Assembly: GCF_036971445.1 (NCBI RefSeq)
Contig: NC_091469.1
Coordinates: 68,262,001 to 68,326,000 of the forward strand
DNA length: 64,000 nt
Source: Narcine bancroftii
Taxonomy: Eukaryota
Reading direction: 5' to 3'
Below are positions 22,992 through 23,159 of the stretch, one piece after another. The first letter of the stretch is position 1. Each line of letters opens with the position of its first letter. Below the pieces are notes generated by a model, which saw nothing but the letters and a program-made list of their open reading frames with translations, searched no databases and was not told the origin of the DNA. The position numbers and the translations under genes were made by a program.

Positions 22992-23159
22992 ATGTGGGAA
23001 TGGAAGGCGCAAACTTTGACTCGCCATCGCTACGAGGAGAATGAAGTTTGCCAGGCAGCGTCTACTTTGTTGAGGATTAAAGTGCCCGTTTGGTGGAACC
23101 TAAGACGGTGTGTGATTATACTGCCCAAGTCCCATCAACAACATGGCCTCGGCTGTTAA
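22992..23159 (+). other. upstream ORF (55 aa) overlapping the ptch1 start codon out of frame
   Basis: ATG 22992 is open to TAA 23157-23159 (MWEWKAQTLTRHRYEENEV...HQQHGLGC*). It matters only if transcription starts upstream of it. Confidence 0.55.

Follow-up and report, generated by a model that had tools for sequence, protein, structure and literature searches.

Three upstream open reading frames (uORFs), one in each frame, crowd the sequence ahead of the ptch1 start codon in the electric ray Narcine bancroftii, and the question raised by this locus is whether their interlocked geometry is itself a conserved device or whether some other property of the leader has been kept. We analyzed a window of 64,000 nt (contig NC_091469.1, positions 68,262,001 to 68,326,000; all coordinates below are those of the window). 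The frame opening at 23143 is that of PTCH1: it aligns with solved PTCH1 chains and shares 78-90% identity with six elasmobranch-type PTCH1 proteins. The coding part of exon 1B (23143-23322, forward strand; residues 1-60, strong start context, donor at 23323) and exon 2 (24444-24637, forward strand; common to both first exons and joined in phase 0) together encode residues that are identical to PTCH1 isoform X1 of N. bancroftii (124/124) and 87-97% identical to 21 other long-form elasmobranch proteins, and the homologous methionine is the start in 23 of 23 long-form elasmobranch proteins. The gene downstream of the uORFs is elasmobranch ptch1, as the earlier note had named it, and ATG 23143 is the PTCH1 start; ten ptch1 exons lie in the window, spanning 23143 to 62885.

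The three uORFs of the earlier note were confirmed at every position. uORF1 (22992-23159, forward strand; G at -3, T at +4) has 55 codons and continues beyond the main ATG 23143 in a frame other than the main one, ending with a TAA at 23157-23159. uORF2 (23000-23044, forward strand) has 14 codons and a strong context (G at -3, G at +4), and its TGA at 23042-23044 lies 98 nt before the main ATG. uORF3 (23041-23073, forward strand; A at -3) has 10 codons in the main frame and no mouse counterpart, and its ATG overlaps the uORF2 stop as ATGA. The inventory was nevertheless incomplete, since it missed the ATGs at 22782, 22848, and 22957. The first two form an upstream cluster (22782-22877, forward strand), in which ATG 22782 opens 31 codons and the in-frame, strong-context ATG 22848 opens nine, with a common stop at 22875-22877; the third is an ATG-stop (22957-22962, forward strand) in weak context, 35 nt before ATG 22992. 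Directly before the first upstream ATG there is a pyrimidine tract of 23 nt (22757-22779, forward strand), and mouse has a longer tract in the same place. The eIF3c subunit binds a pyrimidine-rich Ptch1 motif according to the available part of PMC13044287, so that a link between the ray tract and eIF3c binding may be taken only as a lead. The predicted RNA structure of 22940-23160 is ordinary (z = 0.55; 145 of 200 shuffles fold equally well).

As such, the three-frame interlocked arrangement is at chance level. When the last 200 nt and the 445-nt leader were each subjected to 10,000 dinucleotide shuffles, three frames, an overlapping ORF, and an ATGA stop-start occurred jointly in 12.5% of the former set and 12.1% of the latter, and the same combination was present in 8.3% of the window's overlapping 200-nt tiles (2,498 in all); with the pattern this common in shuffles and tiles, we dropped “three frames” as a signal. 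The leader contains six ATGs, against 6.4 expected. When ATGs 22992 and 23000 were held fixed in 20,000 shuffles, a third ATG arose in the main frame in 52% of them and an ATGA arose at the uORF2 stop in 7.3%; an ATGA stop-start anywhere in the last 200 nt has a 28% probability by chance, and the frame from 22992 was open into the coding sequence in 7.9% of shuffles. These frequencies bear on one reading of the locus, in which the three uORFs would be a single selected relay, with re-initiation at ATG 23041 by ribosomes that terminate on uORF2, whose stop this ATG overlaps, and with an output set jointly by the three frames. The ATGA overlap is real, its ATG has A at -3, and the low frequency of an ATGA at that very stop (the 7.3% above) is in favor of such a relay; but the whole pattern recurs in 12% of the shuffled sequences and 8% of the tiles, ATG 23041 has only a 1.2-fold effect in the toy model described below, and the mouse leader has no AUG between its fifth upstream AUG and the main start, hence nothing that matches ray ATG 23041. 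We regard the relay as very unlikely. Termination-reinitiation elements have an upstream ribosome-tethering motif of the TURBS type. For an element of this kind in the ray, the stop-start overlap is present but not beyond chance, and it is absent in mouse; uORF2 is only 45 nt long.

What exceeds chance is conservation with the mouse leader. We compared the ray sequence by eye with the 5′RACE leader of mouse Ptch1, our single outgroup, as given in the available part of Fujii et al. (2017; PMC5316868), and found seven collinear blocks, which span the leader from its capped end in mouse as far as the main ATG: 8/8 nt at 22697 (matching that capped end) and 11/11 at 22732, both within the first 35 nt of the mouse leader; 12/12 at 22780 (uAUG1), 13/14 at 22804, and 8/9 at 22844 (uAUG2); 24/26 at 22986-23011, covering mouse uAUG4 and uAUG5; and 21/22 at 23139, covering the main ATG as well as the overlapping ORF's stop. 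For the 24/26 block (its match count made by eye), 3.5e-6 chance occurrences are expected in the leader-by-leader search space. Each of the five upstream blocks is expected 0.09 to 96 times by chance and is not significant singly, so these carry weight only through their order. The motif that the earlier note gave for the human 5′UTR was also found in the mouse leader (the comparison was with mouse alone). The human PTCH1b 5′UTR is reportedly the subject of a paper by Ozretic et al. from 2015.

The blocks centre on ATGs, and four of the five mouse uAUGs have a clear ray counterpart of equal -3/+4 context class: uAUG1 corresponds to ATG 22782, uAUG2 to ATG 22848, uAUG4 to ATG 22992, and uAUG5, with its strong context, to ATG 23000, the last two being 8 nt apart in both species. 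By hand count, uAUG4 lies 184 nt from the main start in mouse and 151 nt in the ray, both of the form 3n+1 and thus in equal phase, and uAUG5 lies 176 and 143 nt from it, again in equal phase; the overlapping ORF stops at coding positions 15-17 in mouse and ray alike. The hand count on the mouse leader reproduces the published deletion coordinates 581-705 and gives a total of 842 nt (841 nt published), and it also agrees with the published statement that one added base brings mouse uAUG3/5 in frame (PMC5316868). Since two of the three starts in the earlier note (22992 and 23000) are common to ray and mouse, the element is old, as had been proposed there; the three interlocked frames did not hold up as the conserved unit, with ATG 23041 and its ATGA at chance level and lacking a mouse counterpart, and with uORF1 having contributed little in the mouse reporters. 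What has been conserved is instead the starts as a set, and chiefly the pair 22992/23000.

Other features of the two leaders differ. The ray leader is about 446 nt long and that of mouse 841 nt; the ray leader has 51% GC and, unlike that of mouse, no CGG-like run ahead of the start (in the available part of PMC7617937, the only mention of the Ptch1 leader concerns a human CGG-repeat variant). The first-cluster uORFs have 31 and nine codons in the ray, compared with 132 and 57 codons in mouse (hand count). The uAUG5 ORF has 22 codons in mouse, ending 107 nt before the start, but 14 codons in the ray, ending 98 nt before it at another stop; the stop common to mouse uAUG3 and uAUG5 is not kept in the ray, and we rejected TGA 23113-23115 as its homologue (it is in another frame and lies 113 nt from the uAUG5 counterpart, rather than 66 nt). 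The start-stop ATG 22957 lies 35 nt before ATG 22992, while mouse uAUG3 lies 43 nt before uAUG4 in a different frame, with 7/10 nt matching by eye; that ATG 22957 is the positional counterpart of uAUG3 is possible but doubtful. The encoded peptides resemble those of mouse by eye (6/9 first residues for uORF2, 7/12 for uORF1), which singles out no frame.

The mouse leader has been dissected functionally, and the repression of mouse Ptch1 by uORFs, mentioned in the earlier note, is borne out by that work. As described in the available part of Fujii et al. (PMC5316868), removal of the first uAUG cluster has no effect, whereas removal of the uAUG3-5 cluster raises reporter translation about sixfold; uAUG4 contributes little, and uAUG3 and/or uAUG5 initiate, the two not being separated. 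Luciferase normalized to mRNA rose upon point mutation of the uAUGs, and deletion by CRISPR increased PTCH1 protein and decreased Shh responses and ventral neuron markers. According to the same authors, conservation of the uAUGs is high throughout the vertebrates. Because the ray starts match the mouse uAUGs of this dissected brake, Patched1 is likely held down in the same way, and we consider the ray upstream starts to be probably the orthologue of the known constitutive brake of mouse Ptch1, with the strong-context ATG 23000 as its probable working start and likely the main repressive one.

The proposed course of events in the ray is as follows. The transcript would be capped near 22697, as the homology to the mouse 5′RACE end suggests. 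Ribosomes that pass the first cluster (22782, 22848), or re-initiate after it, would be caught mostly at ATG 23000, and since the 14-codon uORF2 ends 98 nt before the main ATG, only a fraction would re-initiate there; those that start at 22992 would be lost, since their termination codon falls within the coding sequence, and ATG 23041 would be a lineage-specific extra of small effect. With scanning ribosomes captured before the main start, each mRNA would yield little full-length Patched1. We also ran a toy scanning model over 3,000 random sets of assumed parameters. It gave a median 3.6-fold rise when the three starts were removed (5-95%: 2.1-8.0) and ranked the single starts as 23000 (1.8-fold), 22848 (1.6), 22992 (1.45), 22782 (1.3), 23041 (1.2), and 22957 (1.0). 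Its predicted 2.2-fold effect of the first cluster is not seen in mouse; the model is thus wrong on this point and weak, and we rejected it as evidence, its parameters being assumed, and keep it for illustration only.

One puzzle is why the phase and stop of the overlapping ORF have been preserved, though this ORF is minor in the mouse reporters. It may have been kept as a conditional switch (an ATF4-like choice between hitting and skipping the start, dependent on initiator tRNA) or for its peptide, and would then tune Patched1 under stress or Hedgehog signalling, an effect that reporters in unstimulated cells would not see. Its start, phase, and in-CDS stop are equal in ray and mouse despite a length difference of 33 nt (hand count), and the 7.9% of shuffles in which its frame stays open points the same way (the phase and open-frame tests were post hoc). 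The common stop is, however, explained by the conserved coding sequence. Val-Asn occupies residues 5-6, the place where the overlapping ORF stops, in all 23 long-form elasmobranch proteins (the stop itself being invisible in protein). Mutation of mouse uAUG4 mattered little in the available part of that study (PMC5316868), and the 55-residue uORF1 peptide has no homologue among 5.8 billion or 1.84 billion proteins, libraries in which small ORFs are seldom included. In the ATF4 leader, a short permissive uORF is followed by an overlapping uORF. The ray leader is similar in that a short strong uORF, the one of nine codons, ends 114 nt upstream of ATG 22992 and so precedes an ORF that runs across the main start out of frame; it is dissimilar in that other uORFs intervene. 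A conserved very short permissive uORF of the ATF4 type is absent from the two leaders, the counterparts having nine codons in the ray and 57 in mouse, where both uORFs of the first cluster are long, with 132 and 57 codons, and inert in the available part of the published work. We consider a conditional role unlikely.

The preferred reading, a constitutive brake orthologous to that of mouse, also depends on where the transcript begins. A candidate 5′ end of the exon 1B transcript is placed within 22697-22756 (forward strand) by the mouse-leader blocks at 22697 and 22732; this segment also has a CCAAT at 22699 and a GC box at 22751. The cap site is likely near 22697, far upstream of 23045, the limit set in the earlier note. 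About 75 nt upstream of it there is a putative perfect GLI-type site (22617-22625, reverse strand; motif match). Given this promoter-like setting (CpG-rich, with CCAAT, GC-box, and GLI motifs), constraint at the DNA level could contribute to the conservation of the blocks. In a stronger form of this idea, the blocks would be promoter or enhancer elements, or would sit in part 5′ of the true cap site, with the ATGs as passengers in the ray. The CpG observed/expected ratio of 0.55-1.08 over 21000-24999, with the GLI site, CCAAT, and GC box, is compatible with this, as are initiator-like words at 22980, 23062, and 23116 (a short and common pattern) and the first four codons of uORF2, which show no difference at any of the three codon positions, the pattern expected of a DNA motif. 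But three blocks have an ATG at their centre, and the accessible parts of the mouse study place all blocks inside the predominant capped transcript, using 5′RACE together with RNA-seq (PMC5316868, legend of Supplementary Figure 8), and report that point mutation of the uAUGs raised mRNA-normalized luciferase (PMC5316868). We find it quite unlikely that the ATGs are mere passengers.

Upstream of exon 1B there is a second promoter-like region. The window has two CpG-rich domains, 15000-18500 and 21000-25000, with observed/expected ratios mostly of 0.5-1.1 (0.62-0.85 at 15000-18000), compared with 0.35 for the window, at a GC content of only 37-53%; these domains mark two putative promoter regions. 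Two perfect GLI-type sites (16504-16512, reverse strand; 16547-16555, forward strand; putative motif matches) lie at the candidate distal promoter, about 210-260 nt upstream of ATG 16763. The scan for the GLI consensus gave 15 matches in the 64-kb window, three of them perfect, and all three perfect sites sit at the two candidate promoters. Downstream of the distal pair we located the 3′ part of a candidate distal first exon of the 1C type (16589-16771, forward strand; its start is approximate), with ATG 16763-16765 and, from 16766, a consensus donor. When joined to exon 2, this ATG is in frame and gives M-G-K-A-T-G-R-K, a type of start found in 13 of 48 elasmobranch PTCH1 proteins, including Narcine isoform X2 (predicted RefSeq models). 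A second ATG-donor word (20745-20753), which likewise shares the frame of exon 2, sits in DNA that is AT-rich and CpG-poor; it is probably due to chance, but it could also supply that methionine.

The layout is comparable to that of PTCH1 1B and 1C. According to the available part of PMC10363645, human exon 1C has its own ATG and its product is a weaker inhibitor, and Hedgehog signalling upregulates both 1B and 1C. Likewise, the full N-terminus is encoded by ray exon 1B, a distal exon with ATG as its last codon would join exon 2 to give M-G-K-A-T, and putative GLI-type sites are found at both ray candidate promoters; human exons 1 and 1A have no located counterpart in the ray window. The distal exon is plausibly an alternative route around the exon 1B leader. 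The earlier note had seen in it a bypass of the brake, and it would indeed skip the leader, but it is not a plain bypass, because its product is a different protein that lacks residues 2-60 and because up to three upstream ATGs of its own precede the distal start, at 16491, 16589 (a one-codon uORF), and 16622 (a four-codon uORF).

We also looked for the element and for reports of it elsewhere. Metagenome contigs scanned with a 20-nt core yielded eight loci, all of them (8/8) motif-only matches and none with ptch1 exon 1 by tblastn. In a literature search with thin coverage of subscription journals, we found, among the papers listed, no report of ptch1 uORFs in cartilaginous fish, nor any on uORFs of PTCH1b or on hyperconserved untranslated sequence of ptch1, and a search of equally thin coverage for ribosome profiling of zebrafish patched uORFs returned Fujii et al. 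(2017) alone; PMC9456764 does not contain Ptch1, and PMC9581113 contains nothing on the leader. Taken together, the ray uORF cluster is real and old, but most likely the orthologue of a known element. If so, a translational brake on the Hedgehog receptor, along with its cap site, would be as old as the last common ancestor of jawed vertebrates; the gain is modest, since the mechanism was known and conservation of the uAUGs in vertebrates had been stated in 2017. For the mouse question of the “3rd and/or 5th” uAUG, the ray points to the fifth start, which retains its strong context; a counterpart of the third is doubtful.

Several further features of the gene were seen in the window. The exon 1B donor at 23323 (AAG/GTGCAT) is less consensus-like than the distal donor, and read-through past it gives a frame of 88 codons that ends at 23409. 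The N-terminal motif encoded within 23143-23322 reads RPTYCNAAF here and in both Narcine proteins; the remaining 21 of the 23 long-form elasmobranch proteins have RPSYCDAAF instead, as does solved mammalian PTCH1. The comparison points to two lineage-specific changes within a motif that is otherwise fixed. A GAG repeat at 23182-23199 encodes a run of glutamates that varies across elasmobranchs, with one to two in sharks, four to six in rays, and six here. Intron 2 (24638-50304) is about 25.7 kb long and contains LINE-like fragments, and further LINE-like reverse-transcriptase pieces lie at 2190-5143 and 9804-10790.
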